A stretch of DNA of 50,783 nucleotides, from positions 1-50,783 of the forward strand of contig NSJL01000027.1 in assembly GCA_002634385.1 (NCBI GenBank), read 5' to 3'. Below are positions 6,469 through 47,475 of this stretch, one piece after another. Below the pieces are notes generated by a model, which saw only the letters and a program-made list of their open reading frames with translations, ran no database searches and had not been told where the DNA came from. Position numbers and translations under genes: made by a program. Source of the stretch: Nitrospira sp. Its GTDB lineage: Bacteria; Nitrospirota; Thermodesulfovibrionia; Thermodesulfovibrionales; Dissulfurispiraceae. Position 1 is the stretch's first letter, and the number at the start of each line of letters is the position of its first letter.

Positions 6469-6519
6469 GGTCTCACCTCCATGCAAGAGTCTTCACATAG
6501 GAAATGCATTCGCGGTTCA

Positions 6520-8205: not shown

Positions 8206-8397
8206 TTTATTTCCTCCCGATACCCTTTGTTATCTGCAGGCTGAGCAGATTAGGAAAGGGAAAGTTACGCTTTGTACAGTGTGAACATAGTCACTTCAAT
8301 TGAGGTGATTATGCTCACACAGGCTCATTTTTGAGCCTTCACCTTCATTACCTACTGTTGCCGATTCCCTTCGACGCTCGGACCCTTAACGCTTTCC

Positions 8398-9468
8398 TTA
8401 GTAAGCTCCATACAGGGCAGCCGCCTTCACGAGGGCCTTTATGTTCTCGGGCGGAACGTCGTGGTGAATTTCACATCCGGCCGATAATAGATATCCCCCT
8501 CCCGGCATACCGATCTCCAGGCATTTCTTCGCTTCTGCCATTACCTGCTCAGGGGTTCCGAACATGAGGGCCGCATTCGCCTTTGACACGCCGACGTTCC
8601 CTGCAATAGCCACCTGTTTCCCGTATTTCTCTTTTGCCCATTTCAGGTCGACCGAGTCGTGAAAAGCAACGCATATCGGCTGGATTTCATTGACGATCAA
8701 ATCCAGGAATGGAGTAGCGTTTTCACACTGATGGTAAATATACGGGGCCCTTATGGCGTCACGGATTTTTCTGTGGTAAGGGACGACGAACTCGGCATAC
8801 TGAGGCACGCTGACCGCCTCATCAACCATCCCGCCCTCAACAGTCGCTATTGCAATGGCCCCCGCTTCGAGCATGGCCTTGGCAAAAGCGATCGATGTCT
8901 GGGTGCAGAGCTCAAGCAGGTCATGGATAAAAGACGAATTTTTAGCCATCTCCACATAAAGCCGCTTATAACGGCCTTCGAGAACATCCGCCACCGTATC
9001 CGGAGGTCCGTTCACGAACCCCACGATGGGCACATCGGGATAGTTCTTCTTCAGTTTCCTGATCACGTCCAGGATGACCGGCATCCTTCCGGCCTTGGTG
9101 GGATCGGGGACTGAAAGTTTGGCAAGATCCGCAGGGGTCTTGACGGCCCATTCGCTGACCACGCCCATGCGCATACCGCCGCCGCACTTGAGCATGTAAT
9201 CCAACTTCGAGCCCAAGGCCTCGCCCTCGACCCGGAAATCCACGGGCAGGAAGAAGTTATCAGCCCCGTACACCGTATACTGCTTCTCTATCGACTGATA
9301 GAGCTTTCTCGGATGGCTAAGCCCTTCCTTCCACGTATAGTCCAGATCCACGAAGTCATGCTGGGCGGCACTCTGAAAATAAAGGGCGACGGGTACCCGG
9401 TCCGGTGTTTTAAACGTAAGGGCTGCAACAACACGTTCTAACGGAGTCATTGTGGACATTGTTCTCAC
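8398..9468 (-). CDS. URO-D family methylcobamide/corrinoid methyltransferase (MtaA/CmuA/O-demethylase MT-I-like)
   Basis: 356 aa, typical MtaA-family length and pattern. Starts 7 nt downstream of the corrinoid-protein gene. Confidence 0.7.
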   Translation of the reverse strand: MRTMSTMTPLERVVAALTFKTPDRVPVALYFQSAAQHDFVDLDYTWKEGLSHPRKLYQSIEKQYTVYGADNFFLPVDFRVEGEALGSKLDYMLKCGGGMRMGVVSEWAVKTPADLAKLSVPDPTKAGRMPVILDVIRKLKKNYPDVPIVGFVNGPPDTVADVLEGRYKRLYVEMAKNSSFIHDLLELCTQTSIAFAKAMLEAGAIAIATVEGGMVDEAVSVPQYAEFVVPYHRKIRDAIRAPYIYHQCENATPFLDLIVNEIQPICVAFHDSVDLKWAKEKYGKQVAIAGNVGVSKANAALMFGTPEQVMAEAKKCLEIGMPGGGYLLSAGCEIHHDVPPENIKALVKAAALYGAY

Positions 9469-9475
9469 CTCCTCC

Positions 9476-10114
9476 TTATTTTTCCACTGCGGATTCTACC
9501 CACTTCAGGGCTTCCTTTTCATTGTCACCATAAAAATCAGCCCCTATCTTCTTGCAAAACTCCCAGGAGATCGGTCCTCCGCCGACGCCCACCTTGATCT
9601 TGTCCCGGAGGCCTTCTTCCACGAGTCCCTCCAGGGTCCGCTTCATACTGAGCATCGTCGGCGTCATGAGGGTAGAGAGCATCAGAAAGTCGGGCTTCTC
9701 CTCAGCCACCTTCTCAAGATAATCCTCGATGGGCACGTCACGTCCCATGTCTATACAGGCAAACCCATTTGCCTCCAGCACTATCCTTACGAGGTTCTTG
9801 CCGATGTCATGGACGTCGCCTTCGACAACGCCGATCAGTACCTTGCCTTTCCCTGCCGTTTCGACCTTCATCTTTGACTTCAGGATATTGAAGGCTTCAT
9901 AGAAGGCTTCGGAGCTGAGGAGCATCTGGGGTAGATAGTACTCCTTCTTATCATACTTTTCGCTGACTATTGCCATAGCCGGGATCATACCCTTTTCTGT
10001 TATGATCATCGGGTCGATATTGTCAGCCAAGCCCTGTCTGGCCAGCCTTCCCGCTTCGTCAATGTCGCCTACAACGATGGCGTGGTTAAGGTCTTCGAAA
10101 ATTTTTTCAGACAT
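9476..10114 (-). CDS. Corrinoid (B12-binding) protein of methyltransferase systems (MtaC/MtbC/OdmA-like)
   Basis: 212 aa with an N-terminal helical cap domain. Rossmann B12-binding domain with the DxHxxG motif (GDVHDIGKN) and S.L....M signature. Confidence 0.85.
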   Translation of the reverse strand: MSEKIFEDLNHAIVVGDIDEAGRLARQGLADNIDPMIITEKGMIPAMAIVSEKYDKKEYYLPQMLLSSEAFYEAFNILKSKMKVETAGKGKVLIGVVEGDVHDIGKNLVRIVLEANGFACIDMGRDVPIEDYLEKVAEEKPDFLMLSTLMTPTMLSMKRTLEGLVEEGLRDKIKVGVGGGPISWEFCKKIGADFYGDNEKEALKWVESAVEK

Positions 10115-10153
10115 TGTGTACCTCCACCTTAGTAAAAAAGGTTTATACAGCTA

Positions 10154-10966
10154 TCACGCCTCTGCCTTGTCTTCTTTCACCTTTACATTGCCACTCCTTT
10201 CTCTTTTAGTGAGCAGGCTTTTGGCCTGTTCAAATGTGCGCTCAAGAATGTTGAGCGTCCCCTTGGTTTCGTCCACATAAAACCCGAAGGTATCCGCGAA
10301 CTTTTTCGTTTCGGCGCTGAGCGTCTCGCGGTCTCCGATTCCCGTGTCAACCATCAGTACCCGCTTATAAGCCGCTTTCTTAAAGATCCATTTGACCGTG
10401 GCGATATCCGGACAGTGAAGTTCCTTTAGCAGCAGCGTATCAGAGTGCTTAAGCCAGCCGGGAGTCACAAACCATGTGCCCGCCTCACGACGGACCTGAT
10501 CCAGGTATTTTTCGGTCCCTCCCAGCACCAGGCACACGCAGTCATCGATCGTACTGCCATCTTTATTCTGCAGCAGTACGATAGGGCAACGGAGATCGAC
10601 CAATTGTTTTTCGATATCGAGGAGTCCATTGCCGCAAAGTCCGTAGCCCAGCACGAGGACGTCACTCTTCTCAGCCAGAATCCTGGCCTGCTCTGCAACC
10701 CCCTCTCTCAGCATAGTCTTGTCCATGTGAAGAGCGACGCGAAGCACCGCAGCCAGAACCTCGAAAGAGAGTGCCGAGTCCGGCAGAAACTCAGCTGCAT
10801 CCTTTATCCTTTTCAGCCTGTTGCCCAGCAACCCATGCAGGGACGCAATGCTGTCTGTCGCAGGACCGCTCTCGACGAAAGTGACTTTCCCGATATCAGG
10901 ATCATGGGAAAGCATATGCGCCATCTCATCTTCGAAAATTTCGCACGTTAAGAGCCCGATTACCAT
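10154..10966 (-). CDS. DUF1638-domain protein (accessory protein commonly adjacent to corrinoid methyltransferase genes)
   Basis: Start placed at the ATG at 10966 (MVIGLLTCEIF..), with a GGAGAGAGGAGGA RBS-like tract upstream. Family assignment is from overall pattern and gene context. Confidence 0.5.
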   Translation of the reverse strand: MVIGLLTCEIFEDEMAHMLSHDPDIGKVTFVESGPATDSIASLHGLLGNRLKRIKDAAEFLPDSALSFEVLAAVLRVALHMDKTMLREGVAEQARILAEKSDVLVLGYGLCGNGLLDIEKQLVDLRCPIVLLQNKDGSTIDDCVCLVLGGTEKYLDQVRREAGTWFVTPGWLKHSDTLLLKELHCPDIATVKWIFKKAAYKRVLMVDTGIGDRETLSAETKKFADTFGFYVDETKGTLNILERTFEQAKSLLTKRERSGNVKVKEDKAEA

Positions 10967-10983
10967 GGCATCCTCCTCTCTCC

Positions 10984-12618
10984 TCACCCCGCAACCTTGA
11001 CGGACTCAAACAACAGACCGTTAGGGCATTCCGCTTCACAACGCCGGCAAGCGGTGCCGTTACAAAGGTCGGAGCGGATTACAATGCGTTCATTCTCACC
11101 CACCCTCTCGATGCGGGCGGCGGCCTCCGGACATTCATTGAGACATTTGCGGCAATTATCACCCAGGCACCCCCCTGCAGGGAAATCAAGAGAGAGTTCG
11201 GTGCCCACGCTGTCCACGACAGTCAGTCCCATAGGACCGATTTCGATGATGTCCCGCTTTGAGATGTGAATCAACTCCGGCGACGGGTGCGGCTGAGGAA
11301 ATTCCTGAATGCCATAGAGAGCGAGCATGCCATTCATCATATGCATCGGCATTCCTTCATCCCAATAGGCCAACTCACAGACATAGGCATTCTTAAATAC
11401 CTTTGAATCTGCGAACATGATGTGCTTGGCGGTGATCGTATCGGCCACTTTCTGGAGCATGTCCAGGAGCTCCGGACGTCTGACGATTTCAGTGGCAAGA
11501 CACAGGCTCGTGTTCCCTGCCTGTATTATCCTGCCTGCCGAGTTAGGAATCAGGCCGACTTTCCGGGCCTTTAAGGGGTCCACGTATGTGCCCGAGGCCC
11601 CTGTCATGTACACAGCGTCCAGTTTCGGCAGTTTTATGCCGACCTCTTCCACGAGTGTCATGTGCCCGGCCCGTATGGCGCCGATAGCCTTCCCCGCCTC
11701 TCGCACATCTTTCTCTGTCAGGTAGATCCCTTCGGTCATGTGCAGTTTTCCGTCGGCAGTACTGATCTTTGGCGGGCCTACCAACCCCGCATCGATCCCT
11801 TCGGCAATCGCGGCGACAACACCCGTGCCGGTAATCCCTTTCGGCTGGCAGTTCGGGGCGCCCTGCAGAACAATCACACCGTCCTTGACCCGGATGCTCG
11901 AACCGGAACGTGCGATGAGATCTGAATTGAGCACACGAATGTCCCAGACTCCGTCGCCGGAGACTAAGTCCGCAATGGCGCCCGGCTGAGCCAACATGCC
12001 GCAGGAGACGTGCTGTCCTTCCATGGCAGGGCCTGCTGCTGCCGAACCCGTCAGTATGTCACCGCCGACCTTGATGGCCATTTCCGCGTTGGTACCATAA
12101 TCTGTGACGATAGCCACCTCATCCTTATCAAGGAGGCCGGTGATATACATCATCGCCAGGGCATCCGCACCGATTTCATGCCTGACTGCCGGCGGCACAA
12201 GGAGTTCCGCCTTGTCGGGCAACTCCAGTCCGATATCGGCAGCCCGGATGACACGGGCAGGCCGCTTGACCGCCTCCGTGATTCCCAGCTTTTTGAGTCC
12301 CCGCTTGCCCGCAAAGGCCAGATCCCTGATTTCCATCCTTTGGAAGAGAGAAAGCTGGATGGGATTTCCGCAGATCGCCACACGCCCCACCTCTTTAAGG
12401 TCGATCGGGAGGGCACGGATGACCTTGTGCACCGCATTGAGAATCAACTTGTGAGTAATGTCATATCCCATTTCAAGACAGAAGTGAAGATGGTCCATAA
12501 CATTTGCCCCCGGCAGAGGGTGGCGGGTCGATATCGCGGTGGCGATGACCCTGCCATCCTCATCAATAGCCTGGGCCCGGAACCCGCTCGTCCCCAAATC
12601 TATTGACAGGCTTTTCAT
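10984..12618 (-). CDS. ramA: RamA-type reductive activase of corrinoid enzymes (ASKHA-fold ATPase with C-terminal 2x[4Fe-4S] ferredoxin domain)
   Basis: 544 aa. N-terminal sugar-kinase/Hsp70-like fold (MKSLSIDLGTSGFRA). C-terminal Cys clusters (CLGDNCRKCLNECP, CNGTACRRCEAECP). Confidence 0.75.
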   Translation of the reverse strand: MKSLSIDLGTSGFRAQAIDEDGRVIATAISTRHPLPGANVMDHLHFCLEMGYDITHKLILNAVHKVIRALPIDLKEVGRVAICGNPIQLSLFQRMEIRDLAFAGKRGLKKLGITEAVKRPARVIRAADIGLELPDKAELLVPPAVRHEIGADALAMMYITGLLDKDEVAIVTDYGTNAEMAIKVGGDILTGSAAAGPAMEGQHVSCGMLAQPGAIADLVSGDGVWDIRVLNSDLIARSGSSIRVKDGVIVLQGAPNCQPKGITGTGVVAAIAEGIDAGLVGPPKISTADGKLHMTEGIYLTEKDVREAGKAIGAIRAGHMTLVEEVGIKLPKLDAVYMTGASGTYVDPLKARKVGLIPNSAGRIIQAGNTSLCLATEIVRRPELLDMLQKVADTITAKHIMFADSKVFKNAYVCELAYWDEGMPMHMMNGMLALYGIQEFPQPHPSPELIHISKRDIIEIGPMGLTVVDSVGTELSLDFPAGGCLGDNCRKCLNECPEAAARIERVGENERIVIRSDLCNGTACRRCEAECPNGLLFESVKVAG

Positions 12619-12622
12619 AGTT

Positions 12623-13672
12623 TTAAACCCATACCTTCCTGAAGCCGTGTTTCTTACCGGTTTCGACCATGGTCTGCAGGTTTATCGTCGAGGTCTGCGG
12701 GGGTATTCCACAGCAGGTTGTGAGGACGTCAGTCCCCTTCTCAATGCACTCTATGACGGCTTGCTTGACTTCTTCCGGCTCCCCGAACAGCAGGACCCCG
12801 TTCACATTAATATTTCCACACATGGCGGTGTTTTCTCCCACCGTCTGTTTGGCATAAGCCATATTTACCATGGAGTCAACCGAGATACCCGGCGCCACCT
12901 CCGCCATCCTCGTCAGAAGCAGGTCGTTCTTCCCGCAGATGTGAAGGATTGTGGGCACTGAAATGTTTTCGGTGATGCTCCGGGAGTAGGGCTTGGCAAA
13001 TTCGTCAAACTGTTTTGGACTGATCAGATCGCAGCTGGCAGTGGCATCAACGATCACTACAACATCCGCCCCTGCCTCGACCTGGGCCTGGGCATACTTC
13101 ACGCAGACCTTCTGAGCCCTCTCAATGAGCTCCTTGGTAACGGCAGGCTTCCTCATAATTTCGCGCATGAAGGGGTCTACCCCCCTGACCTGAGCCGCTA
13201 CCATGAAGGGTCCCACGACCATCGAGAGGACGGGTATGGTATCGGGAACCCTCTTTTTGAGGAGCTTGATCGCTTCGAGGACCACCGGCATCCTGCCGTC
13301 TTTATAAGGGTCGGGGTCCTTCACCCTGCTGAAGTCGCCCGTTTCGGACACGGGGGGTTCCTTCACCGGGGGTTGTATATCCAGGCCCTTGTTGCGCCCT
13401 GCGTGATACTCCAGCTCGCATCCCATGGCTTCGGCTTCTATATTGATATCGAAGGGGACACGAACGCTCTCAAAGCCGATGACCCGATGTGCCTCATACG
13501 ACAGGGTAGCCATGAGTTCCGCGTTGGAATGCACTTCCGGCCAGAAAGCCCCGCATGATTTCATCAACTCTATCGTTCCCGTATGCAACGGCTGCGCTAC
13601 CGGTATGCGGTCTACGGGTTGATGGGCCAGGGTGGCAAAAAGTCTTTCCTTCGGAGACATGGTTTCTTTCAT
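12623..13672 (-). CDS. URO-D family corrinoid methyltransferase (MtaA-like paralog)
   Basis: Start at the ATG at 13672 (MKETMSPKERLFATL) with an AAGGAGGA RBS. 349 aa. Ends 4 nt before ramA. Confidence 0.7.
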   Translation of the reverse strand: MKETMSPKERLFATLAHQPVDRIPVAQPLHTGTIELMKSCGAFWPEVHSNAELMATLSYEAHRVIGFESVRVPFDINIEAEAMGCELEYHAGRNKGLDIQPPVKEPPVSETGDFSRVKDPDPYKDGRMPVVLEAIKLLKKRVPDTIPVLSMVVGPFMVAAQVRGVDPFMREIMRKPAVTKELIERAQKVCVKYAQAQVEAGADVVVIVDATASCDLISPKQFDEFAKPYSRSITENISVPTILHICGKNDLLLTRMAEVAPGISVDSMVNMAYAKQTVGENTAMCGNINVNGVLLFGEPEEVKQAVIECIEKGTDVLTTCCGIPPQTSTINLQTMVETGKKHGFRKVWV

Positions 13673-13778
13673 GAAATCCTCCTTTTCGGGGTTCTTGCTT
13701 CTCTCCCTAAGATGAAGCATTGAGAGGACCCTTCTTGTGTTGTGGTTAAGCATTCCTGATTGATCAGCAAAAAAATGA

Positions 13779-15395
13779 TCACTCTTTTTCCTCTGTCCTG
13801 CACATTCCAAAATCGTATGCACCTGTTCCCGGAGGCATTCCCGGCATAAGATTGACGGTGCCGGTCAAGGCACAAAAATACCCCGCACCGGTAAACGGCA
13901 CAAAATCAACGATTGGCAGTGTATATTTTCCGGGCACATTTTTTATCCGCGAGTCGTGGGAAAGGGACAGATGGGTTTTTGCGATGCACGGACCGCAATT
14001 CTGACGGCTTGAATGAAGAGCCTCCTGTCTTTCCATCCCTGTCAGGATCCCGGATGCCCGGGAAGATTGTGTTATCCCCTGCGCACCGTATATCGTGGAG
14101 GCAACTTTCGCTATTTTCTCTTCCGTGGAAAGAGAATCATCATAAAGCCTGCGGAAGCTGAAGCGCCTGTGGGTAGCCTCCACCACTGTTTCAGCGAGTT
14201 CGTCTCCCCCCCTGCTTCCCTTCTGCCATCCCCTGTGTGCAACGGCGAAATCGGCGCCGAGATCAAGTGCGGTCTTTGCAATCTTTCTTATTTCTTCATC
14301 GTGATCAAAGGAAAACCTGTTGACGGCAACGACCAGCGGAAAGCCGAAGATCTTAACGTTCCGAATATGTCTTTCGAGGTTCTTCATTCCCGCCATCAGG
14401 GCGGCGTCATTCCTTCCTGCCCATTCGCTTTCTTCAGAAACCCGGCCCCTGTCCAACGTGCTGAGACCGTGCATCTTGAGAGCCCTGGCCGTTACCACCA
14501 GGACGACGGCATTGGGCAGCCTCTGAAGCACGGGGGCTTTGATAGCCATGAATTTCTCAAAACCCGTATCCGTACCGCCTCCGCCTTCGGTAACAACGAA
14601 ATCGGCTGTCCTCAGCGCCACTTCGTCAGCCATGACGGAACAGTTGCCGTGGCTGATGTTGGAGAAAGGTCCGCAGTGGAGAATGACCGGGGTGTTTTCC
14701 GAAGAAAGAACAAGATTAGGCAGAAGGGCCTTCCGGAGGATCCGTATCAGATCCGATTCTATCCTGATAGCGGACATCAGGACCGGATTGCCGGCCTCGT
14801 CAAAGCCCAGCGTTATTCTTGATAGCCTCTCTCTCACCTCTTCATGGGTTCTGGAGAGGGAGAGGATTGCCATGAGCTCCGACGCCTGGGTCATGATAAA
14901 GCCGCTCCTCAGGGATCTGTCACATAGGTCAATAGCCCTGTTCCAGAAAATCCTCTCTTCATCCAGGCCAGGCGGATTCCCCCAGAAAAAGAGGTTATCC
15001 ATATGGGCTGCAACAAGATTGTGGGCCATGGTGACTGCGTGCGTGTCTCCGGTACAGTGAAAATCGATTTCCTCCTGAGGAAGAAGCCTTGCTTTGCCCC
15101 CTCCGGAGCCGCCGCCCTTGCGGGCAAAGTAGAGGCCCATCGAGGGTTGTCTCAATGTGGCTATCGAGCTGCTGCCTCTCCTATTAAGGGCCATGCTCAG
15201 CGTTATTGCCGTAACCGTTTTCCCTTCTCCTCTGTAAGTGGGGGTCATCGCGGTTACAAAGATATATTTGCCGCCGGGCCTTCTCGGCAGTCTTTCGGAC
15301 ACTTCGGGAGAAATCTTGGCCATAGACTTCCCGTAAGGATCGATTTCCTTCTTTTGAAACCCGAACCGTGCGGCGATGGGAAGAATGGATCGCAT
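13779..15395 (-). CDS. fhs: Formate--tetrahydrofolate ligase (formyl-THF synthetase)
   Basis: 538 aa. P-loop TPTYRGEGKTVTAITL. FTHFS C-terminal pattern (GAGYFCALTGTVNLMPGMP). Confidence 0.85.
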   Translation of the reverse strand: MRSILPIAARFGFQKKEIDPYGKSMAKISPEVSERLPRRPGGKYIFVTAMTPTYRGEGKTVTAITLSMALNRRGSSSIATLRQPSMGLYFARKGGGSGGGKARLLPQEEIDFHCTGDTHAVTMAHNLVAAHMDNLFFWGNPPGLDEERIFWNRAIDLCDRSLRSGFIMTQASELMAILSLSRTHEEVRERLSRITLGFDEAGNPVLMSAIRIESDLIRILRKALLPNLVLSSENTPVILHCGPFSNISHGNCSVMADEVALRTADFVVTEGGGGTDTGFEKFMAIKAPVLQRLPNAVVLVVTARALKMHGLSTLDRGRVSEESEWAGRNDAALMAGMKNLERHIRNVKIFGFPLVVAVNRFSFDHDEEIRKIAKTALDLGADFAVAHRGWQKGSRGGDELAETVVEATHRRFSFRRLYDDSLSTEEKIAKVASTIYGAQGITQSSRASGILTGMERQEALHSSRQNCGPCIAKTHLSLSHDSRIKNVPGKYTLPIVDFVPFTGAGYFCALTGTVNLMPGMPPGTGAYDFGMCRTEEKE

Positions 15396-16432
15396 CAGCC
15401 CGTGATTCTCCCGTTGGCCTTCACTGTTTCAACCATGATACGCATATTTTCTGCGGGAATTTCAGGCCACAGGTCACAACCGGGCCATACTGCGCTCACT
15501 CCGTCCTCAAGTGCTCTCAGTACCTCCTTCTCGACATCCTCGGGGCTCCCCAGACAAAGTATCTGGTAAGTATCGAGATTCCCGAAGATGAGGGCATCCT
15601 TTCCGAGAAGCTGCCTCGCTTTGCTTACCTCTGTCTTCTTTTCTACGCTTATCGCGTCGCCTTTTGCGTTTGCCATATCTCCCACAATCGGATTCGTGTT
15701 GCCGCAGATATGGAGCACCTTGTGCATCGGTATTCCCGCCATAATTCTGTCCAGATGCGGTTTCACGAGGGATCGGAACATTCTCGGACTCAGGACATCG
15801 GTGCTGGCGCCCATCTCTCGTATGGTTATGTAGTCGGCTCCGGCATTCCTGTATACGTCGGCCACTGCAATGATAAGGTCTGCAAACAAGCCAAGGACCT
15901 CATTCACGGTCTCCGCATTCTTGAAAGCCTGCTTCAGGAGCCCTTCCAGGTCCATCACCTGCCCTGCCAGAAGAAAAGGGCCCAGTACATAAGTGCCTAC
16001 AGCTACTTCTTCACCTATTTCTTTTTTCAGTATCCGTATCGCTTCGGTGATAACGGGAAGCCTTCCCTTTTCCGCAAGGTTCCCCGGAATCTTTATGTCC
16101 GCCGGCCCCTTGACAATCTTGTCCTTTATCGTCGGATACAGGATTCCGTCCCGATGGGAATAGGTATTCATCGTGCAGCCCAGAATTTCAGCCTCAACCG
16201 CAATGTCGTACGGGACGACGGCGCATTCAAGGCCGAAGAGCCTGTACGTAGAGGAAGAAGTCGCTGCCATCAGCTTCGGATCGGTGTGGACTTCAGAGAA
16301 AGGTATGCTGCTTTCTTTCAGTCCGTGGACAGTCACATTTCCCATACCGCTAAAGACCGGGACACGGTCGATCTCCTCCTTTCTGAATAGCCTGAGCACT
16401 CTCTCCCTGGGGCTGTACTTTTCTCCCGTCAT
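15395..16432 (-). CDS. URO-D family corrinoid methyltransferase (MtaA/CmuA-like paralog)
   Basis: 345 aa. The stop overlaps the fhs start by 1 nt (translational coupling). Confidence 0.7.
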   Translation of the reverse strand: MTGEKYSPRERVLRLFRKEEIDRVPVFSGMGNVTVHGLKESSIPFSEVHTDPKLMAATSSSTYRLFGLECAVVPYDIAVEAEILGCTMNTYSHRDGILYPTIKDKIVKGPADIKIPGNLAEKGRLPVITEAIRILKKEIGEEVAVGTYVLGPFLLAGQVMDLEGLLKQAFKNAETVNEVLGLFADLIIAVADVYRNAGADYITIREMGASTDVLSPRMFRSLVKPHLDRIMAGIPMHKVLHICGNTNPIVGDMANAKGDAISVEKKTEVSKARQLLGKDALIFGNLDTYQILCLGSPEDVEKEVLRALEDGVSAVWPGCDLWPEIPAENMRIMVETVKANGRITG

Positions 16433-16504: not shown

Positions 16505-17311
16505 CTATAGTCTTCCCTCTTTGTACGCGGCCAGATACGCAGCACAGTCCCTATCTCTTCCAAGCATCGTTTGTGCTGCCACAATAGTAGCCATGAGTTC
16601 TCTGTCGAGCGGGTTGAGGAGGACCGCGTCAAGGTCTGAAGCCATCAGCATCGCCTGGAGAGTCCTCGTCGCGAGCGAGCGCTTCGGGAGATTCCATGTA
16701 CTGGCGCTGACATTCACCATGGTCTTCACCTGGGGGAGCTCCTTCTTTATCAGCCTGAGGGACTCGAGGGAGGTGAGAGATTGCCTGTACCAGTTCGGCG
16801 CACTCACCGGGAGGCACATGAAATCGATATAAAGCAGAGAAAGATCGATTCCATACCTGTCAACCGTTTCAGCAAGTCTTTTCGCTATTTCGAGCCTTCC
16901 TTCCGCATGATCAGGCATCCCCCCCTCCTCATCGATCGTTACACCGACAACTTTGCACCCCATCTCTTTTACAAAAGGGAGTATTCCATTGATCCTGTGC
17001 TTCTGCAGGGTTATAGAGTTGGCGATGCAGCTCTTTACCTCCCTGCATCGGCGCAGGCCCGCCTCGATCGCCTTCGGATGAATACTGTCCACCGCGAGGG
17101 GAATATCGGTCACTTCCTGGACAATATCGACGGCCCATTCAAGCCTCTGGACATTGTTTTCAAGCTTCAGCCCCGCATTGACATCGATTATGTCCGCTCC
17201 TGCCTCGACCTGCTTCGTGGCTTCCTCCTGAATCACCCTGGCATTCTTCTCCTCATACGCCTTCTCGATATACTTGATCGATGTGTTGATCCTCTCTGCA
17301 ATTACTTCCAT
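16505..17311 (-). CDS. Pterin-binding methyltetrahydrofolate:corrinoid methyltransferase (MtrH/AcsE/MT-II-like, DHPS-like TIM barrel)
   Basis: 268 aa with a pterin-binding-domain pattern (ERINTS...DIIDVNAG...). Confidence 0.7.
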   Translation of the reverse strand: MEVIAERINTSIKYIEKAYEEKNARVIQEEATKQVEAGADIIDVNAGLKLENNVQRLEWAVDIVQEVTDIPLAVDSIHPKAIEAGLRRCREVKSCIANSITLQKHRINGILPFVKEMGCKVVGVTIDEEGGMPDHAEGRLEIAKRLAETVDRYGIDLSLLYIDFMCLPVSAPNWYRQSLTSLESLRLIKKELPQVKTMVNVSASTWNLPKRSLATRTLQAMLMASDLDAVLLNPLDRELMATIVAAQTMLGRDRDCAAYLAAYKEGRL

Positions 17312-17336: not shown

Positions 17337-18203
17337 TTAAAATCCAGCCTTATCCAGAACGAGGGGCACTTTGTCCTCCCAGTGAATGGTATAGATATGA
17401 ACCCCCCGGGATAGATCCCGTAAATCCCTGATCAGACGGGCTGCTATTTCGATACTTGTGTCCACGGGATCGGTGCTCTTTTCAAATGCATCGAGTATGA
17501 ACTTCGGAATAGTAATCCCGGGGATATTCTTGTTCATGAAATGTGCCATCTTCGCGGATTTGAGCAGAAAGACGCCCACAAGGACAGGCACGGATAAATG
17601 CCTAGTTTTTTCAACGAAACCGGCAAACATCTCGATGTCGAAAACAGGTTGGGTCTGAAAGAAATCGGCACCTGCCGCAACTTTCTTCTCCATTTTCATT
17701 ATCTGAAGTTCCAGCGGAGCGGATGACGGGTTCACCGCCGCTCCCAGGCAAAAGGACGGAGAGCCCTTGAGGCGATTGCCCGCCATATCCGTACCGTCCT
17801 CCAGCCCTCGGGCCGCTTTCAAGAGCTGAACCGATTCAATATCGAACACTCCCTTTGCGCCGGGATGGTCCCCCAGGGACTGGTGGTCTCCGGAAAGGAC
17901 GAGGACGTTATTTATTCCCAGGGCTGAAGCGCCTAACAGATCGGATTGCAGGGCCAGCCTGTTCCTGTCCCTGCATACCATCTGAAGTATCGGTTCAAGT
18001 CCCTCTTCTTTTATCAGGAAGGAGGCGGCAAGGGAGCTGAGGCTCATGACGGCGCTCTGATTGTCCGCCGCATTTACGCCGTCGACCCTTCCCCGCAGGG
18101 GATGGAGTATCTTCAACTCTTCTCTTATATCCGTCCCCTTAGGCGGGAGAAAATCCGTTGTAATGACAAATCTTCCTGACTTTAATGCTTCCCTCAATGC
18201 CAT
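17337..18203 (-). CDS. metF: 5,10-methylenetetrahydrofolate reductase family protein (MetF-like, paralog 1)
   Basis: 288 aa, MTHFR-family TIM barrel pattern (FVITTDFLPPKG...VCRDRNR...). Separated by 1 nt from paralog 2. Confidence 0.7.
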   Translation of the reverse strand: MALREALKSGRFVITTDFLPPKGTDIREELKILHPLRGRVDGVNAADNQSAVMSLSSLAASFLIKEEGLEPILQMVCRDRNRLALQSDLLGASALGINNVLVLSGDHQSLGDHPGAKGVFDIESVQLLKAARGLEDGTDMAGNRLKGSPSFCLGAAVNPSSAPLELQIMKMEKKVAAGADFFQTQPVFDIEMFAGFVEKTRHLSVPVLVGVFLLKSAKMAHFMNKNIPGITIPKFILDAFEKSTDPVDTSIEIAARLIRDLRDLSRGVHIYTIHWEDKVPLVLDKAGF

Positions 18204-18204
18204 G

Positions 18205-19107
18205 TTACCCTACGGCTCCTGCGGTGCGGTTTTTTCTTCCCGTAATTTCTGCTTCGTCCAGGATGCGGGGAATCCGGTCGTGCCACGGCGTGGTCATCAT
18301 GAGGTGAACCCCGGAGCAGACAGCCGCGAGTTCCCTTACAAGCCTGACGGTTATATCGATGCTTCTCTTCTCAACATCTCCTTTTTCGAGCTCCTGTAGT
18401 ATCGATTCAGGAATATGCACACCCGCGACGTTTTTATTCATGAAGCGCGCGGAGGCTGCAGATTTCAGAATGAATACCCCTGCAAAAACCGGGATATCAA
18501 GAAAGGCCACCCCCTCCAGGAACCGGACATATCTATCGACGTCAAAGATGGGCTGAGTCTGCAGAAATTCGGCTCCTGCCTCAGCTTTGAGACGCGCCTT
18601 CCCGATCTCTTCCTGAGGTTTTGCCGCGCCGGGGTCGAGGACAGCGCCGAGACAGAAATTCGGTATGCCGTCAAGGCGCTTTCCACCCATGTCAAAGCCC
18701 TTCTCGAGATTCCTCGCTGCCGCCAGCAGCTGGACAGAGTCAAAGTCGAAGACCGGTTTTGTGCCCGGATTGTCCGAATCCGTCGCCTCGTCACCTCTCA
18801 GACAGAGAATGTTCCTCACTCCCAACGCATAGGCGCTCAGAAGCTCTGACTGCAGACTGATCCTGTTTCTGTCGCGACAGGTGATCTGCATTATGGGCTC
18901 TATCCCCATCTCTCTTATCTTCACGCAGGCCGCGAGGGCGCCCATCCTCATATTCGCCCCGGGCATATCAGCGACATTTATCGCATCAACCCTCCCCTTC
19001 AAAAGCTCGATACCTTTTACCGTTTTGTATACAGCTGTGCCTTTCGGCGGGATTACGTCTGTCGTTACAACAAACTCTCCGGATCTCAGCTTTTCCTTGA
19101 ATGTCAT
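18205..19107 (-). CDS. metF: 5,10-methylenetetrahydrofolate reductase family protein (MetF-like, paralog 2)
   Basis: Start at the ATG at 19107 (MTFKEKLRSGEFVVTTDVIPPKG) with a GAGGTGG RBS. Same family as the adjacent gene. Confidence 0.7.
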   Translation of the reverse strand: MTFKEKLRSGEFVVTTDVIPPKGTAVYKTVKGIELLKGRVDAINVADMPGANMRMGALAACVKIREMGIEPIMQITCRDRNRISLQSELLSAYALGVRNILCLRGDEATDSDNPGTKPVFDFDSVQLLAAARNLEKGFDMGGKRLDGIPNFCLGAVLDPGAAKPQEEIGKARLKAEAGAEFLQTQPIFDVDRYVRFLEGVAFLDIPVFAGVFILKSAASARFMNKNVAGVHIPESILQELEKGDVEKRSIDITVRLVRELAAVCSGVHLMMTTPWHDRIPRILDEAEITGRKNRTAGAVG

Positions 19108-19118
19108 CTTTCCACCTC

Positions 19119-19991
19119 TCATCTCTCGGGAATAACCCACTTCTTGCTTCTCTGTATATTCTTAAGCCTCATGAGCTGTTCCTCGGCTATCGTAAAGGTA
19201 TGTTCGGGGGCAGGGAATTTGAAGGCTTCTACCTCATCCTTGAAGGCTTTGACCGCTTTCGTAGTCTCAGCCCAGAGATTCACATATTTTTTTACGAATT
19301 TCGGAACAAAGTGTTCATAGAGTCCGATCATGTCCTGAGTGACAAGGGCCTGTCCGTCACAGTGGAGGCCGGCACCTATTCCTATCACGGGGATTTTCAG
19401 CGTTTCCGTAATGATACCGGCGACGCTCGGAGGCAAACATTCTACGGAAAGAGCAAAAGCCCCGGCTTTCTCGCATTCCATAGCGAGGTCGATGAGGTCT
19501 GACGCCTCTTCAGCGGTCTTCCCCATCACGGCAAACTTGCCGTATCGTGACACAAACTGGCGTGTAAGACCGATATGAACCATGGTAGGGATTCCGGATT
19601 CCACTATGGCCCGTGCGATCTTTACCACTTCCGGACCGCCTTCGATCTCTACACCGTCAGCACCTCCTTCCTTGATAAATCGCCGGGCATTCCTCCTGGC
19701 ATCCTCTTCGGTGTTGTAATCCATAAAGGGCATGCAAGACAGGATAAACGCCCGTTCTACGGCATTGGCGACAGCCTTGGTATGATGAATCATCTCCTCC
19801 ATAGTCACCGGGAGGGTATTCTTATATCCCAGTCCGGTCATGCCCAGAGCGTCGCTTACGAAGATGATGTCGATGCCGGCCTGATCGATAATCCTGGCAA
19901 ACGGATAATCGTAGGCGGTCAACATGCTTATTTGTTCGCCCTTTTTCTTCTTGGCCGTGAGAGAAGAAACACTCACCTTGTTTTTTTCCAT
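19119..19991 (-). CDS. panB: 3-methyl-2-oxobutanoate hydroxymethyltransferase-like enzyme (PanB family) with about 25-aa C-terminal amphipathic extension
   Basis: Strong PanB pattern (ISMLTAYDYPFARI..DIIFVSDALGMT..TLPVT..IPVIGIGAG..DGQALV). 290 aa vs about 264 for canonical PanB. The extra C-terminal tail is TIAEEQLMRLKNIQRSKKWVIPER. Confidence 0.8.
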   Translation of the reverse strand: MEKNKVSVSSLTAKKKKGEQISMLTAYDYPFARIIDQAGIDIIFVSDALGMTGLGYKNTLPVTMEEMIHHTKAVANAVERAFILSCMPFMDYNTEEDARRNARRFIKEGGADGVEIEGGPEVVKIARAIVESGIPTMVHIGLTRQFVSRYGKFAVMGKTAEEASDLIDLAMECEKAGAFALSVECLPPSVAGIITETLKIPVIGIGAGLHCDGQALVTQDMIGLYEHFVPKFVKKYVNLWAETTKAVKAFKDEVEAFKFPAPEHTFTIAEEQLMRLKNIQRSKKWVIPER

Positions 19992-20005: not shown

Positions 20006-20563
20006 CTATATGATTACGCTGCTCAGGCTGCTGTGGGGTGCAGGTATAATGGTCGTCATTGTCAGCATGCCGGACTCTTCGATAGCAGCCGTCGCAGCAT
20101 CAAGTGCCGCCTCGACGGAATAAAGCTCACCGGTCAGGGTTACAAAAGCCTTTCCCCCCAGCCCTCTCGCCAAACGTATCTCTATTAGCATTATGTTTGC
20201 CGCTTTTGCCGCCGTATCTGCGGCGATTATGCATGAAGCGATCGAAAAAGTCTCAATAACTCCCAGAGATGCGACTTCCTTCACCTCGGTAGTTCCCCGG
20301 ATGGCCGGGAAGATGCCTTCATGGATGTTCGGGATCAGGAGACGATCGACAATTTGATCTCCACCGATCTGAACTCCAACTTCGATGGATGCTTCCACCG
20401 GGGCGACCAATCCGCAGATGACAACACTGTATTTTCCAGGACAGGTAGGCGTCGCCTCCAATAACTCTATAGGCGCTTTCTTCATCATATAATCACATGC
20501 CATAATTCCGCGTGCAATACTTCTGAATTCTATGAGGCCCAGGGCCTGTCGCGCTTCCGTCAT
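20006..20563 (-). CDS. pduT: BMC-T shell protein, PduT-like (tandem BMC domains, putative [4Fe-4S] site)
   Basis: 185 aa. Two BMC domains. The conserved TCPGK Cys is at the position of PduT C38. Confidence 0.8.
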   Translation of the reverse strand: MTEARQALGLIEFRSIARGIMACDYMMKKAPIELLEATPTCPGKYSVVICGLVAPVEASIEVGVQIGGDQIVDRLLIPNIHEGIFPAIRGTTEVKEVASLGVIETFSIASCIIAADTAAKAANIMLIEIRLARGLGGKAFVTLTGELYSVEAALDAATAAIEESGMLTMTTIIPAPHSSLSSVII

Positions 20564-20575
20564 CCGGCTTTCCCC

Positions 20576-21904
20576 TTACGCTGCTTCGATAACAATCTCA
20601 CCTCCGCCAATCCTCTGAACCCTGCCCGAGACCGATGCGTGGTATTTAGCACCCATATATCCGTCGGGTATATCGGCGATCAGATCGCCCTGCCGGATAA
20701 CATCCCCCTCCTCAACTACCGGGACAGCCGGAGCGCCGATGTGCTGTCGTAATCCTATCTTCACCTGCCTGACCGAATAGGGCGTCTCCTTGAGCGGTGC
20801 AATCTCCTTGTACTTTTCCAGTCCCAAACGGCTCAGCAGTCGTTCTGATGGCACTTTACGATGCTCCATTTCCTGCCTCGCCTTCACTTTGACTTTTTGC
20901 GGTTCATGCCGGTAGCCTCTCTTGGCGAGTTCAGCCCTGATTTCCATGTTTACCTGCCGCGGGGAGAGACCTTGAACACAGGCATAGGTCTCGCAAAGGC
21001 CACATCCGGAGCATGCTGCCGCTGAAGTAACGACATCAGGAGCGACGACATTCCCATAATCAAGAGACCTCATGATTTTGTGGGGCTGAAGACTATGGCC
21101 CAGCAGATACCGTGGACAGAGCTCGGTACAGTAACTGCACTGAGTGCAGGCCGACTTGATCAGACGGATATTCCGCTGTAAGGGTCTGGTCTTTAAGGTG
21201 ATGAGGGGATGGTTCTTCGGCAGCACGAGAAGCATTCCCAGGGTTTTATTGACCGTACCTGAAACATCGAACGTAACCCTGCCCATCATCGGGCCTCCGG
21301 CGATCATCGCATATTCCTCGACTTTTGCACCACCGGCCATCGCTATCACGTCACCGAAAGCAGTCCCGACCGGAACCCTGAAAGTCGCCGGATGTTTCAC
21401 CTCGCCAAGAACTGAAATATGGCGGTGAGTAACCGGAATGCCCCTCTCGGCTTCCGAGATGTTGAAAAGAGTTCCGACATTCTGCACAACCACTCCCTCG
21501 GAAAGAGGGAGATTCCCTTCGGTAATGACCCTGCCCGTTACCTCGTGCACCAATACAAACTCGTCCCCGGCAGGATAGAAATCCCGGAGCAGGAAAAGCT
21601 CGATGTTCTCCTTGCCCGAGATTGCCATCGAGAGACTATCGATGGCGGTTTTATATTTCTTCTTTAGAGCCACTATGCCTTTTGAAGCGCCGACAGAGTC
21701 CATGAGGAGGGCAAGGCCGGCGATTACCGTATCGGCGTGTTTCACCATGAGCTGCTGGTCGGCCTGTGCCAGGGGTTCACATTCCGCCCCGTTGGCAATC
21801 ACCATTTCCGCTTTTGATCCGGATTTGATATGACTTGGGAAGCCCGCGCCTCCCGCACCGATTATCCCGGCGTCTCTCACCCTCGTCACAAGGTCTGTCG
21901 TCAT
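20576..21904 (-). CDS. pduS: PduS/RnfC-like flavo-Fe-S oxidoreductase (BMC-associated; cobalamin-reductase-like)
   Basis: 442 aa. RnfC-type N-terminus (GIIGAGGAGFPSHIK). Two ferredoxin-type Cys clusters (CTQCSYCTELCP; CSGCGLCETYAC). Confidence 0.75.
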   Translation of the reverse strand: MTTDLVTRVRDAGIIGAGGAGFPSHIKSGSKAEMVIANGAECEPLAQADQQLMVKHADTVIAGLALLMDSVGASKGIVALKKKYKTAIDSLSMAISGKENIELFLLRDFYPAGDEFVLVHEVTGRVITEGNLPLSEGVVVQNVGTLFNISEAERGIPVTHRHISVLGEVKHPATFRVPVGTAFGDVIAMAGGAKVEEYAMIAGGPMMGRVTFDVSGTVNKTLGMLLVLPKNHPLITLKTRPLQRNIRLIKSACTQCSYCTELCPRYLLGHSLQPHKIMRSLDYGNVVAPDVVTSAAACSGCGLCETYACVQGLSPRQVNMEIRAELAKRGYRHEPQKVKVKARQEMEHRKVPSERLLSRLGLEKYKEIAPLKETPYSVRQVKIGLRQHIGAPAVPVVEEGDVIRQGDLIADIPDGYMGAKYHASVSGRVQRIGGGEIVIEAA

Positions 21905-23521: not shown

Positions 23522-23842
23522 TCAAAATCTGACAGGCGGAGCCTGCCAGATGGGAACTTTCTGGAACTGCGCCTCGCCCGAGAGCTCCACGGTGTCCACG
23601 ATACCGATGATGACCGCGTCCACCGGCCTGTCCTTGGTGATCCCCGTTTGCCGGGCTGAGCTCTCCAGGGTATAGAGGACCACATCATTCGTTCCCGCTC
23701 CAACGGCATCCACGGCTATTTCATATCCTCCGCACGGCTCCCCTTTGTAGTCCACTTTCTCGACAATCAGAAACTTTGAACCGGCCATGGTCTGTACCCG
23801 CTGGTCGCACACGACCGTTCCTACAACCTTTCCTAAGAGCAT
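23522..23842 (-). CDS. BMC vertex protein (BMC-P; EutN/PduN/CcmL family)
   Basis: 106 aa, MLLGKVVGTVVCDQ...VDAVGAG pattern. Confidence 0.8.
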   Translation of the reverse strand: MLLGKVVGTVVCDQRVQTMAGSKFLIVEKVDYKGEPCGGYEIAVDAVGAGTNDVVLYTLESSARQTGITKDRPVDAVIIGIVDTVELSGEAQFQKVPIWQAPPVRF

Positions 23843-23858: not shown

Positions 23859-24218
23859 TTACCGCGTTATTTTCTTTGATTCTTTATGTTCAATAGCCTT
23901 TTGCTCGTTCTGCTCGATCATCTCCCAGTAATCCCTGCCCCTGCCCAGCGGCAGTGCGATGTCCACATTATCATGCGGCCGCGGGATCAAATGGACACTC
24001 ACTACATCGCCCACCTTTCCGGCCGCTATGCCCCCTGCCTCAAGAGCGGCCCTTACCGCCGCCACGTCGCCCCTGACAATTGCAGTCACATAACCGCCGC
24101 CGATCTTCTCATAGCTAACCAGTTCAACCTTTGCAGCCTTCACCATTGCATCAGAGGCCTCCACCATTGCGGCAAATCCCCTTGTTTCGATCAGTCCCAA
24201 AGCTTCCGTCGTACGCAT
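23859..24218 (-). CDS. BMC-H hexameric shell protein (PduA/EutM-like) with about 25-aa C-terminal tail
   Basis: [54 protein letters not shown]...VHLIPRPH, canonical BMC-H. Confidence 0.85.
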
Positions 24219-24301: not shown

Positions 24302-25063
24302 CTATGACTCTTTTTTCGACGGGGAATTCTCCCTGCCTGTTATCGACTCAAGAGCGCGGTGAACCGCATCCATGCCGACCTCCACGTCCCTCTCTTCACC
24401 ACAAAAGTAAAGCCTGCCGAAGGCACCGAAATTTCTGACCTCTATCAATTTGATATCAGCCGCTTTTTCAGCCTCATTCGCCGCGAAGTTGGCATATCCG
24501 GCCGGATGCACCTCAAGAATGTACAGCGTTTCTCCCGGCAAAATGTAGTTTGCACTTCGGCTCGTACGGTTTATCAGCTGGCACTGATAATCGTGAACTC
24601 TTCGTATCAGTTGACTTGTCAGTATTCTCGGCTTAAGCCTGTCCATCTCCGTTTTCTTCAAGGCTTCAAGAATCGCGTTTCCGGATTGGAGTACCTGGCC
24701 CTGATCGCTATGGTGGAACTCCAGCATTCCAAACGCCCTCTCCACCACCTGAGCGCCGGGCATCACGTCTGTGGCTTTGACCGCTACATCTGTCAGCCTG
24801 TTAATCTCGATGCCCGGCGCTATCTCAACAATTATCGACGCCTGCCCCACTATGGGAAGATATCCCCGTGCGGTTGCTGCAACCTGCGATGCCAATTGCG
24901 GCTGCATCTGGTCAATAAAGACATATACCCTTAATTCAATGGCACCTCCATCCGGCTGTTCGGTACTTATGGCGGACTGATATTTTGGTATCTCCGCAGC
25001 ACCTTTCGTACTCGATTCAGTAATCTTTATCCCTGACGTGGGATGTGACTTCGAAACTGCCAT
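24302..25063 (-). CDS. BMC-T shell protein with permuted tandem BMC domains (PduB/EutL-like); first gene of the long minus-strand cluster
   Basis: 253 aa. Internal duplicated BMC-like halves. AAGGAGG RBS 10 nt before the ATG at 25063. The AT-rich promoter region lies upstream (25064-25735). Confidence 0.55.
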   Translation of the reverse strand: MAVSKSHPTSGIKITESSTKGAAEIPKYQSAISTEQPDGGAIELRVYVFIDQMQPQLASQVAATARGYLPIVGQASIIVEIAPGIEINRLTDVAVKATDVMPGAQVVERAFGMLEFHHSDQGQVLQSGNAILEALKKTEMDRLKPRILTSQLIRRVHDYQCQLINRTSRSANYILPGETLYILEVHPAGYANFAANEAEKAADIKLIEVRNFGAFGRLYFCGEERDVEVGMDAVHRALESITGRENSPSKKES

Positions 25064-25735
25064 AATCTCTCAACCTCCTTCCTATTGAATAATTGCCATC
25101 ATCGTGTCAACATGCAGATGTCTTCTGCTCTACGTCCTGTAAATACCCCCGGGGGGGTCCTGAAGATTTCGGATCTTCCGGTTCAACCGTTCGCTCCGGT
25201 AATAAATTACGTATTGGGTGTTCAAGCCGCTTGTAGCGCCATTTTTATCCATTTATTGCTTTCATCTTACAGCCCATGAATATTTGTGTCAATAAAAAAA
25301 CCAATTATTTTTTTATAATTCACTTGCCTTACAGCGCACTAATTTCGATAATTAATCATTAAAATCAATATTATATACGTCTTTTAGAGTTATATTAATT
25401 GGTAAATATTATTGCTTTTTATCAATTATGAAAGGGGGCTAAGAGCGTCTAACAAAATGAACAAAAGCTGCTCCTGTGGTAAGTCTTTCTTCTGTCATTC
25501 CCGCGAGCGGAGCGGAGCCTGTCCCCGCGTGTCGGGGATCGCGGGGATCCTTCTTACAGCAGGAAAAGATTCCGGACGAGCCGGAACGACAAATTCATTT
25601 TGTCAGAGGCTCTAAATGATATTCTCGGCAAATCCGGAGCTCTTGCCATACGCTGAAACATTACGAAACCGTCTTTCCGGACTTCTACGGAAGACCTCCT
25701 TGTCTTGACTTTGAATTTTATGCAAAAATAAAAAA

Positions 25736-41507: not shown

Positions 41508-41941
41508 CAGCTTCCCCTCCTCTCAGGCACCCCCGCTGACCCCTTCGGAGGCGCTCTTCAAAAACGAAAAAGGCGATGAGGGACGATACCCCGCCTCGGT
41601 GGAAGATCCATGGTGCATACCGAAACATACTCTCCTTGCCAACATCTGGATCATTTGGTGCGTTTTTGGTGCATTGTAGCACCATTGTTGCAGATTGCGG
41701 TGCTGTTTTGCACCACGTCTTTCCCTTTGCAGGGCAGGTGAACGAGAAAGGCCTCTATTTATCATGGGCTGAGAAACAAAAAAGGAGGTGGCACACAAGA
41801 TGCTTAAGACTGCAGGAGGCAAGGAAAGAAGGAGGTGAAGAATAACAGCGAAAGCTGCGGGAGGGAATGCGTGTTGTGAAACGCTGCGGGAATTTTTACC
41901 GAGATGCTCAGAAGAGCACAAGAAAAAAGGAGGCAACGAGA

Positions 41942-43126: not shown

Positions 43127-43144
43127 GCAGACAAGGAGGCAACA

Positions 43145-44344: not shown

Positions 44345-44380
44345 AGAAGGGTTTTTACAACACTATCATGGAAGGGGTTT

Positions 44381-44863
44381 ATGAATACTGAGTGCATGAA
44401 TAAAACCACTACACTGTCAGAAGATCTGGAAGGACTCAAGGAGGTGAGGGTTGTCTGGGACGTAACCATAGGCGACGCGAGAATGTTCGCAGACCGGATC
44501 AACCTCATCCGGCAGACCGCGGAAAGCTTCCGTAAGCGGGGGATCACTCCCTGCTTTGTCGTCGCCATTCATGGTCCGGCAACGAAATTTGCGACGCAGT
44601 CCCTGGCCGGTACGGTGTTCGAAAAGGAAACCGCCGAGAACATGCCCGACATCCGGAAGATCCTTGAGGAGCTGACCCAAAGCGGAGCGCGGATACAGCA
44701 GTGTGAGATAACCCTTCTGCGCGGCAATATCCCCAATGACTGCATTCTTCCTTTCATCAGCACGGAAGAGAACGTACTGGTCAATATTGCCGCGCTTCAG
44801 AACAAGGGCTATGCATACATGCCCTTTCACATAGCCGAGCCGCTCATCAAGCCCGGTGGGTAG
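44381..44863 (+). CDS. DsrE/DsrF/YchN-like family small protein (putative)
   Basis: 160 aa. Rossmann-like start VRVVWDVTIGD...CFVVAIHGPA. Embedded between the SBP and permease genes. Confidence 0.35.
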   Translation: MNTECMNKTTTLSEDLEGLKEVRVVWDVTIGDARMFADRINLIRQTAESFRKRGITPCFVVAIHGPATKFATQSLAGTVFEKETAENMPDIRKILEELTQSGARIQQCEITLLRGNIPNDCILPFISTEENVLVNIAALQNKGYAYMPFHIAEPLIKPGG

Positions 44864-46660: not shown

Positions 46661-46688
46661 CAAAAAAAAGAACAAGAGTCCATTGCAC

Positions 46689-47462: not shown

Positions 47463-47475
47463 CAAGGAGCGTATC

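Follow-up and report, generated by a model that had tools for sequence, protein, structure and literature searches.

Why should a gene that reads as ketopantoate hydroxymethyltransferase (PanB), an enzyme of pantothenate synthesis, stand between a shell-protein gene of a bacterial microcompartment (BMC) and a metF-like gene? The question is raised by a stretch of 50,783 nt from Nitrospira sp. (GenBank assembly GCA_002634385.1, contig NSJL01000027.1, positions 1 to 50,783 of the forward strand), hereafter the window. An original prediction, made from the sequence letters, proposed that this enzyme, which would use 5,10-methylene-tetrahydrofolate (methylene-THF), is a BMC cargo or signature enzyme carrying a C-terminal amphipathic extension that resembles an encapsulation peptide. 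The analysis reported here leads elsewhere. It is strongly supported by sequence comparison that the PanB-like gene is a specialised, probably neofunctionalised PanB paralog of single origin, distinct from housekeeping ketopantoate hydroxymethyltransferase, and it is very probable that the protein is neither a housekeeping PanB nor a cargo targeted by its tail.

A PanB fold with an altered active site

Along its length the protein is recognisably a PanB, as had been predicted. The Pfam family PF02548 (Pantoate_transf) matches residues 5-261 at 326 bits (threshold 28.7; model length 259 positions), and the NCBIfam equivalog model for PanB, TIGR00222, is passed at 293.7 bits against a cutoff of 207.55. 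The AlphaFold2 model (mean pLDDT 88.3, from a 62-sequence alignment) has the PanB-type TIM-barrel fold; the top 28 Foldseek matches are all PanB, the best geometric match being the Mycobacterium tuberculosis enzyme (1OY0; TM 0.93, rmsd 1.8 A), and identity to solved PanBs is 36-40% across the full barrel. Relatives are annotated at source as 3-methyl-2-oxobutanoate hydroxymethyltransferase. Fold and descent, as read from these comparisons, are those of PanB (EC 2.1.2.11), and it is in catalytic residues and genomic context that the protein departs from it.

A 2026 study lists D45/D46, D84, K112, E114, H136 and E181 as lying within 5 A of ligand and strictly conserved in PanB homologs (PMC13488298). 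In the numbering of E. coli PanB, which is used here for Asp84, Lys112 and the other pocket positions, four of the six residues D45, D84, K112, E114, H136 and E181 are kept, and the remaining two are replaced, Asp84 by Cys86 and Lys112 by Glu115 of the query. Position 84 is Cys in 31 of 31 clade members, vs Asp in 81 of the 90 next-best PanBs; position 112 is Glu in all 40 variants, vs Lys in 81 of those 90. Both Asp84 and Lys112 are kept in about 144 of 150 representatives of the 50%-identity clusters nearest the query. The database matches themselves split, with 30 clusters at 58% identity or more to the query and the next matches falling to about 55%. In the 31 close relatives Gly44 has given way to Ser, Val51 to Gly, Asp84 to Cys, Lys112 to Glu, Pro141 to Arg (Lys in 3) and Gly149 to Lys (Arg in 2), each substitution being fixed in 28-31 of the sequences, and Ser46 has become Ala in 24 of the 31 and is kept in 6; relative to PanB as represented by 1M3U and 1OY0, the query protein itself has all seven of these changes. 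Thr, Ser or Lys at position 84 occurs together with Glu112 in 9 of the next 90 matches, and in a neighbour-joining tree the 40 variants with C, T, S or K at 84 and E at 112 form one clade, with canonical PanBs outside it.

Since Asp45, Glu114, His136, Glu181 and the GIGAG and CDGQ motifs are invariant across the whole variant family, the active site looks altered rather than decayed. Newly conserved in the variants are Ser46, Gly53, Glu115 and Arg/Lys144 (query numbering). The metal and acceptor site appears to have been re-positioned: Glu115 may now ligate the metal in place of Asp84, and Arg144 and Lys152 may make up for the lost charge of Lys112 at another position. A three-cysteine metal site (C86, C185, C211) was considered and dropped, as C185 and C211 are also found in canonical PanBs of anaerobes and the sister variants carry Thr, Ser or Lys at position 84.

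Genomic context of the variant clade

Neighbouring genes were surveyed at 60 genome loci and 80 metagenome loci (L-numbers below), scored with the window proteins and with PanC, PanD and PanE probes whose matches were verified by Pfam. The genome scan for relatives was pattern-limited; the metagenome scan, made with the variant-family alignment, gave generic patterns and returned almost only canonical (Asp84/Lys112) PanBs, and it served as a second control sample. Context of the C84/E112 type was counted over 17 locus records plus L075-L077. All of these lie with genes for methylenetetrahydrofolate reductase (MTHFR), a pterin-binding methyltransferase (Pterin_bind), URO-D-family methyltransferases, corrinoid protein or the RACo activase, and none has panC, panD or panE beside it, vs 94 of 131 canonical loci (40 of 52 in the genome scan and 54 of 79 in the metagenome scan, with shell genes in none of either sample). 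The 50.8-kb window likewise holds no panC, panD, panE, FolD, FchA or second panB.

The shell is a less faithful companion. Shell genes accompany the C84/E112 variant in the window and in three further Nitrospirota loci (L015-L017), with an acylating aldehyde dehydrogenase (AldDH), a PduS-like protein and the methyltransferase/THF module; in L008, where gene order is as in the window; in Thermoleophilia (L004/L019) and L010, with AldDH and the methyltransferase module; and in Bacillota (L009/L020/L021), with these and an aldehyde:ferredoxin oxidoreductase (AFOR) gene inside the locus. AldDH is present in all BMC-bearing loci. Shell genes are absent from L001-3, which have only methyltransferase/THF genes within 10 kb on a 216-kb contig, from L077, with methyltransferase genes and a TRAP transporter, and from L075/76, which carry PanB-like, MTHFR, Pterin_bind and URO-D genes, followed in L076 by FTHFS (formyltetrahydrofolate synthetase) and URO-D, and with a GAF regulator upstream in L075. 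Compared with the window, L075 and L076 are without shell, AldDH or PduS genes, six BMC genes being missing and the remaining order kept. The sister variants are similarly placed: T84/E112 genes (L011/12, L078) lie in the order Pterin_bind, PanB-like, MTHFR beside MttB-family methyltransferases, and a K84/E112 gene (L135:7676-13212) has MTTB and Pterin_bind on one side and a class I/II aminotransferase and an M20 peptidase on the other, with no adjacent MTHFR, an arrangement that would fit a 2-oxoacid-derived product later transaminated. In most loci neighbouring genes overlap or sit a few nucleotides apart.

It is clear from these loci that the constant partner of the PanB-like gene is the pair that forms and oxidises methyl-THF, not the shell. 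The BMC block of shell genes, AldDH and PduS is a separable addition before the module in some lineages, because L075 and L076 keep the module order without it. A specialised PanB paralog had been anticipated and is supported by the altered catalytic residues, the monophyletic clade and synteny conserved across phyla, and the same synteny upholds its tie to the methyl-THF branch and its recurrence in a BMC locus.

Several further observations concern the wider family. At L013:1-6861 a canonical (Asp84/Lys112) PanB ends a cluster of FTHFS, FchA, FolD, DUF5981 (MetV-like), MTHFR and MetH-like genes, and an arrangement of this type may be the source from which the variant family was recruited. 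A third variant, Thr84/His112 (293 aa, 26-aa tail), stands in a Chloroflexia metagenome-assembled genome (MAG; CAWDZA010000021.1, L034:6829-11627) directly after BMC-H, BMC-T, BMC-P and BMC-H genes; that BMC locus differs, being without AldDH and including a HUMPS/OMP-decarboxylase-family protein, an SDR (short-chain dehydrogenase/reductase), a sugar ABC transporter, a xylose-isomerase-like TIM barrel and a class II aldolase. AFOR genes recur at L009:10347-12080, between MTHFR and a second shell-gene set in Bacillota, and at L075:712-2520, upstream of the shell-less operon. The source names of two Nitrospirota loci ('palsa' for L016, 'MFD' for L015) suggest peat or soil.

The C-terminal tail

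The alignment with five solved PanB sequences covers query residues 5/7-266/267, and the query continues for 24 residues (267-290; TIAEEQLMRLKNIQRSKKWVIPER) beyond them; four of the five stop no more than one residue from ...EHSF, and the fifth, 1o66, runs about 11 residues further. The predicted excess of about 25 residues is accurate for the comparison with E. coli-type PanB (24 extra) and fails against PanBs with panC/D/E neighbours, the tails of which have medians of 21 aa (genome scan) and 13.5 aa (metagenome scan). AlphaFold2 was run on the protein, as had been suggested, and places a helix at residues 270-283, a terminal element of the kind looked for in an encapsulation peptide (about 15-20 residues). 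It is amphipathic, with a best 11-residue hydrophobic moment of 0.61, and the likeness to BMC encapsulation peptides such as the PduP and PduD N-termini, short amphipathic helices at a protein terminus, was to that extent correctly perceived. The tail is conserved in relatives and is therefore not random read-through.

The targeting interpretation does not survive comparison with PanBs outside microcompartment loci. Among the 120 best database matches, FPxxEHxF followed by x-E-E-hydrophobic-x-K-hydrophobic-K occurs in PanBs of many anaerobes beyond the close relatives. Tails of at least 10 aa are found on 38 of 40 PanBs with pan-gene neighbours in the genome scan and on 44 of 54 in the metagenome scan, and tails on housekeeping PanBs without BMC genes are what the original prediction had named beforehand as evidence against itself. 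In 9 of 36 housekeeping PanB tails the hydrophobic moment equals or exceeds that of the query. The tail of a housekeeping PanB in a panE-panB pair (L014) ends HIDEKELEKLKA and that of another in a panB-panC-panD operon (L033) ends HMKEDRLAALRKIRRKLLPERKAEKKK, both without BMC genes, and clade members in the shell-less loci L001, L075/76 and L077 keep tails of 18-33 aa. The extension is thus not specific to BMC-associated homologs. In the model, moreover, the helix begins 3 residues past the last barrel-associated motif, EHTF, and there is no linker; encapsulation peptides are described as helices attached via a disordered linker (PMC12339742).

That the PanB-like enzyme is nevertheless a cargo or signature enzyme recruited by this helix is very doubtful. 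The helix is real and amphipathic, the gene follows a BMC-T gene by 14 nt, and the order BMC-T, PanB-like, MTHFR recurs in Nitrospirota and Bacillota loci; against these points stand the identical type of helix on housekeeping PanBs that have panC/D/E neighbours and lack shell genes, its presence on clade members in BMC-less loci, the missing linker, and the fact that the locus already has a textbook N-terminal peptide with a long linker, on AldDH. The first ~90 residues of AldDH comprise an amphipathic helix (SPVESLVEKALDRI) and a low-complexity linker of ~65 aa, the typical encapsulation-peptide layout, conserved in L008 and L015-L017, with Thermoleophilia-type loci differing there. On these comparative grounds the PanB-like tail is rejected as a BMC targeting signal: the same helix occurs on housekeeping PanBs and on BMC-less clade members, and no linker sets it off from the barrel. 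It is an element found across the PanB family. In M. tuberculosis PanB, subunits of the decamer are bridged by a C-terminal helix (PMC7770189), and since the model superposes best on that enzyme, the comparison suggests a structural role for the tail region, with the helix probably sitting at decamer subunit contacts. Calling a terminal amphipathic helix an encapsulation peptide requires checking homologs outside microcompartment loci.

The operon in the window

The PanB-like gene lies within one long minus-strand operon (Table 1), with promoter-like sites only upstream, at about 25264-25398, and no convincing internal terminator. The spacers are as had been predicted and can be read from the sequence: the TAG of the PduT-like gene ends at 20006 and is followed by 14 nt containing a GGAG site before the PanB-like ATG at 19991, and the PanB-like TGA (19119-19121) is followed by 11 nt (GAGGTGG) before the metF ATG at 19107, the start called in the source assembly.

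Table 1. Features of the window, with strand and the evidence or remark attached to each
Feature	Position	Strand	Evidence or remark
PanB-like gene	19119-19991	minus	ATG start, 290 aa; C84/E112 type, PanB TIM barrel with apparently rewired active site
C-terminal tail (residues 267-290)	19122-19193	minus	helix 270-283 directly after barrel; homologous tails on housekeeping PanBs
Cys86 codon	19734-19736	minus	replaces Asp84 of E. coli PanB; ungapped alignment to 1M3U
Glu115 codon	19647-19649	minus	replaces Lys112 of E. coli PanB; ungapped alignment to 1M3U
CcmP/CsoS1D-like BMC-T	24302-25063	minus	profiles
BMC-H	23859-24218	minus	profiles
BMC-P	23522-23842	minus	profiles
AldDH, 529 aa	21918-23507	minus	PF00171; NF011927 at 644.6 bits
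PduS-like flavo-Fe-S protein	20576-21904	minus	domain order Complex1_51K-SLBB-Fer4-RnfC_N
PduT-like tandem-domain shell protein (BMC-T)	20006-20563	minus	PF00936 matched twice
MTHFR paralog 1 (metF-like)	18205-19107	minus	PF02219
MTHFR paralog 2	17337-18203	minus	PF02219, NCBIfam
Pterin-binding methyltransferase (methyl-corrinoid:THF type)	16505-17311	minus	PF00809; NF005719 at 248.6 bits
Rest of corrinoid methyltransferase/THF module	5443-16432	minus	4 URO-D/MtaA-family, FTHFS, RACo activase, DUF1638, B12-binding corrinoid protein, Hcp
Hybrid-cluster (prismane) protein, Hcp	6520-8205	minus
GAF-domain protein, 755 aa	25736-28003	plus	divergent from operon
Activator and transport genes	39699-49192	minus, then plus	sigma54/PAS activator (minus); porin, NMT1_2-type binding protein, ABC transporter, TauE/SafE sulfite exporter (plus)

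After the pterin-binding methyltransferase gene the order is URO-D/MtaA-family, FTHFS, URO-D, RACo, DUF1638, B12-binding corrinoid protein, URO-D, Hcp and URO-D, so that the Hcp gene lies among the methyltransferase genes of the operon. Four URO-D proteins, the B12-binding protein, Pterin_bind and RACo make up a corrinoid methyltransferase system, and BMC-H, BMC-T and BMC-P with the acylating AldDH a metabolosome-type set. Judged by composition, the operon joins a BMC gene block to a putative corrinoid demethylase system that supplies methyl-THF. It shares with four-component corrinoid O-demethylases and MtgBCD-MetF2-type modules the URO-D-family methyltransferases, B12-binding corrinoid protein, Pterin_bind and RACo, plus MTHFR; it differs from them in its PanB-like and shell genes, and no described system with either was found in the literature searched. 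The locus resembles a metabolosome in having BMC-H, BMC-P, two BMC-T and an AldDH with N-terminal peptide, but its core is incomplete: no phosphotransacylase or alcohol dehydrogenase was found in the locus, and neither the operon nor the homologous loci have a recognised aldehyde-generating signature enzyme, a part for which the PanB-like enzyme is a candidate only.

The PduS-like protein is found only in Nitrospirota-type loci, and these alone also have two tandem MTHFR paralogs. It could be a PduS-type corrinoid reductase; alternatively it could be an RnfC2-like NADH module for MTHFR, presumably of the kind present in the A. woodii enzyme. The PduT-like BMC-T contains PTCPGKY, which we take to mark the position of the pore [4Fe-4S] ligand in Salmonella PduT (ICPGKF, Cys38), and together with PduS this would suggest electron transfer across the shell. 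GAF proteins similar to the one divergent from the operon occur upstream of the L010 and L075 genes; since L075 has no shell, the GAF protein likely regulates the methyl/folate module rather than the shell. Besides the NMT1_2-type binding protein of the window, an NMT1_2/OpuAC-type binding-protein ABC transporter directly follows the PanB-like and Pterin_bind genes in L010, and transporters of this type may hint at the substrate class. A sulfonate or N-methyl-taurine substrate, prompted by the NMT1_2 and TauE genes 17 kb away, was set aside, there being no direct link between these genes and the operon.

Proposed role and alternative explanations

The explanation judged most likely, to which a probability of roughly 0.55 is given, is that the PanB-like enzyme draws on methylene-THF made by the neighbouring MTHFR and acts on an acceptor that is not alpha-ketoisovalerate. 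A methyl group would pass from the substrate to the corrinoid protein via a URO-D or MttB-type methyltransferase, and from methyl-corrinoid to THF via the pterin-binding methyltransferase; the adjacent MTHFR would then oxidise methyl-THF to 5,10-methylene-THF. The PanB-like enzyme would take up methylene-THF, the one cofactor substrate in common with true PanB, and would deliver the C1 unit to its acceptor with regeneration of free THF. There is a precedent for the rest of the module in the metF paralog (MetF2) beside the betaine demethylase MtgBCD, which has been proposed to oxidise methyl-THF (PMC12478193). Several considerations weigh against this proposal. Use of methylene-THF is deduced from homology and neighbours, and for PanB no structure defines where THF binds; the score still lies above the PanB equivalog cutoff, and residual PanB activity with another metal may persist. 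L135 is without an adjacent MTHFR, and L004 and L010 have Pterin_bind but no MTHFR next to the PanB-like gene. Since the operon contains an FTHFS gene, the ordinary FolD route presumably runs as well, in which case a second consumer of methylene-THF is not obviously needed, and a non-catalytic binding subunit would also fit the loss of two pocket residues.

Such a subunit, a folate-binding component or scaffold of the MTHFR/methyltransferase complex that keeps the PanB barrel without aldol chemistry, would account for the loss of Asp84 and Lys112 and for the overlap of its gene with those for MTHFR and Pterin_bind, which suggests stoichiometric co-production. It is quite improbable given that Asp45, Glu114, His136, Glu181, GIGAG and CDGQ are invariant in the whole variant family and that the new conserved residues (Ser46, Gly53, Glu115, Arg/Lys144) look like a maintained, altered site. 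A plain housekeeping PanB, standing next to folate genes solely because it consumes methylene-THF for pantothenate synthesis, would explain why the TIGR00222 cutoff is passed and why relatives carry the annotation they do, and a canonical PanB can indeed sit in a folate/C1 cluster (L013). Replacement of two of the six invariant pocket residues, the monophyly of the variants, the lack of any variant beside panC/D/E when 94 of 131 canonical loci have such neighbours, and the absence of pan genes from the window make this explanation highly improbable.

A narrower form of the methylene-THF proposal, its special case in which the acceptor is water or a small carbonyl, casts the PanB-like enzyme as the signature enzyme otherwise lacking from a C1 metabolosome not yet described. 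Methyl groups removed by the corrinoid methyltransferases would arrive at methylene-THF within the shell, and the PanB-like enzyme, acting on it as a lyase or aldolase, would release formaldehyde or a small hydroxymethyl-carbonyl and recycle THF; C1 unloading in the shell would restore the trapped THF pool, as PduL recycles CoA, and the encapsulated AldDH, or AFOR, would oxidise the aldehyde before it escaped from the shell. Containment of toxic aldehydes is typical of microcompartments, the module is repeatedly accompanied by an aldehyde oxidiser (AldDH in all BMC loci, AFOR in L009 and upstream of the BMC-less L075), and no other aldehyde-generating signature enzyme occurs in any of the loci. 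PanBs catalyse enolisation and can transfer formaldehyde independently of THF (Sugantino et al., 2003, as cited in PMC7770189). The same enzyme is, on the other hand, also found without any shell or AldDH, FTHFS is present in the operon, and the methoxylated substrate, such as a vanillin-type compound, may itself be the aldehyde. Dissociation of methylene-THF is unfavourable, FolD with FTHFS being the standard route, and PduP/EutE-type dehydrogenases normally act on C2-C3 aldehydes. On balance a C1 metabolosome of this kind is unlikely, and transfer from methylene-THF to an acceptor other than alpha-ketoisovalerate, in its general form, is preferred.

Significance

What is new here is a PanB subfamily that has probably been neofunctionalised, together with an uncatalogued methyl/folate module associated with BMCs. 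No paper was found that links a PanB-like gene with corrinoid methyltransferases, demethylase operons or BMCs, in a search that did not span all journals; a Thermacetogenium paper concerns an ethanolamine compartment. In the consulted portions of the 2021 BMC catalog (main text and 18 supplements) there is no PF02548 or PF01208 accession and no MTHFR, pantoate, panB, corrinoid, folate/tetrahydrofolate or Nitrospirae entry, although such absence is not proof.

Because the PanB-like protein passes the equivalog model, annotation pipelines would call it PanB, and MAGs with only such a copy would be wrongly scored as pantothenate-capable. Across three phyla the module characterises one type of microcompartment locus, with shell genes, AldDH and a corrinoid/folate methyl module, and as this type was not found in the consulted portions of the 2021 catalog, microcompartments may extend into C1/cobalamin chemistry. 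In lineages including Nitrospirota and Thermoleophilia, the PanB-like clade would mark an uncharacterised folate-dependent step in the anaerobic demethylation of methoxylated or N-methylated compounds.

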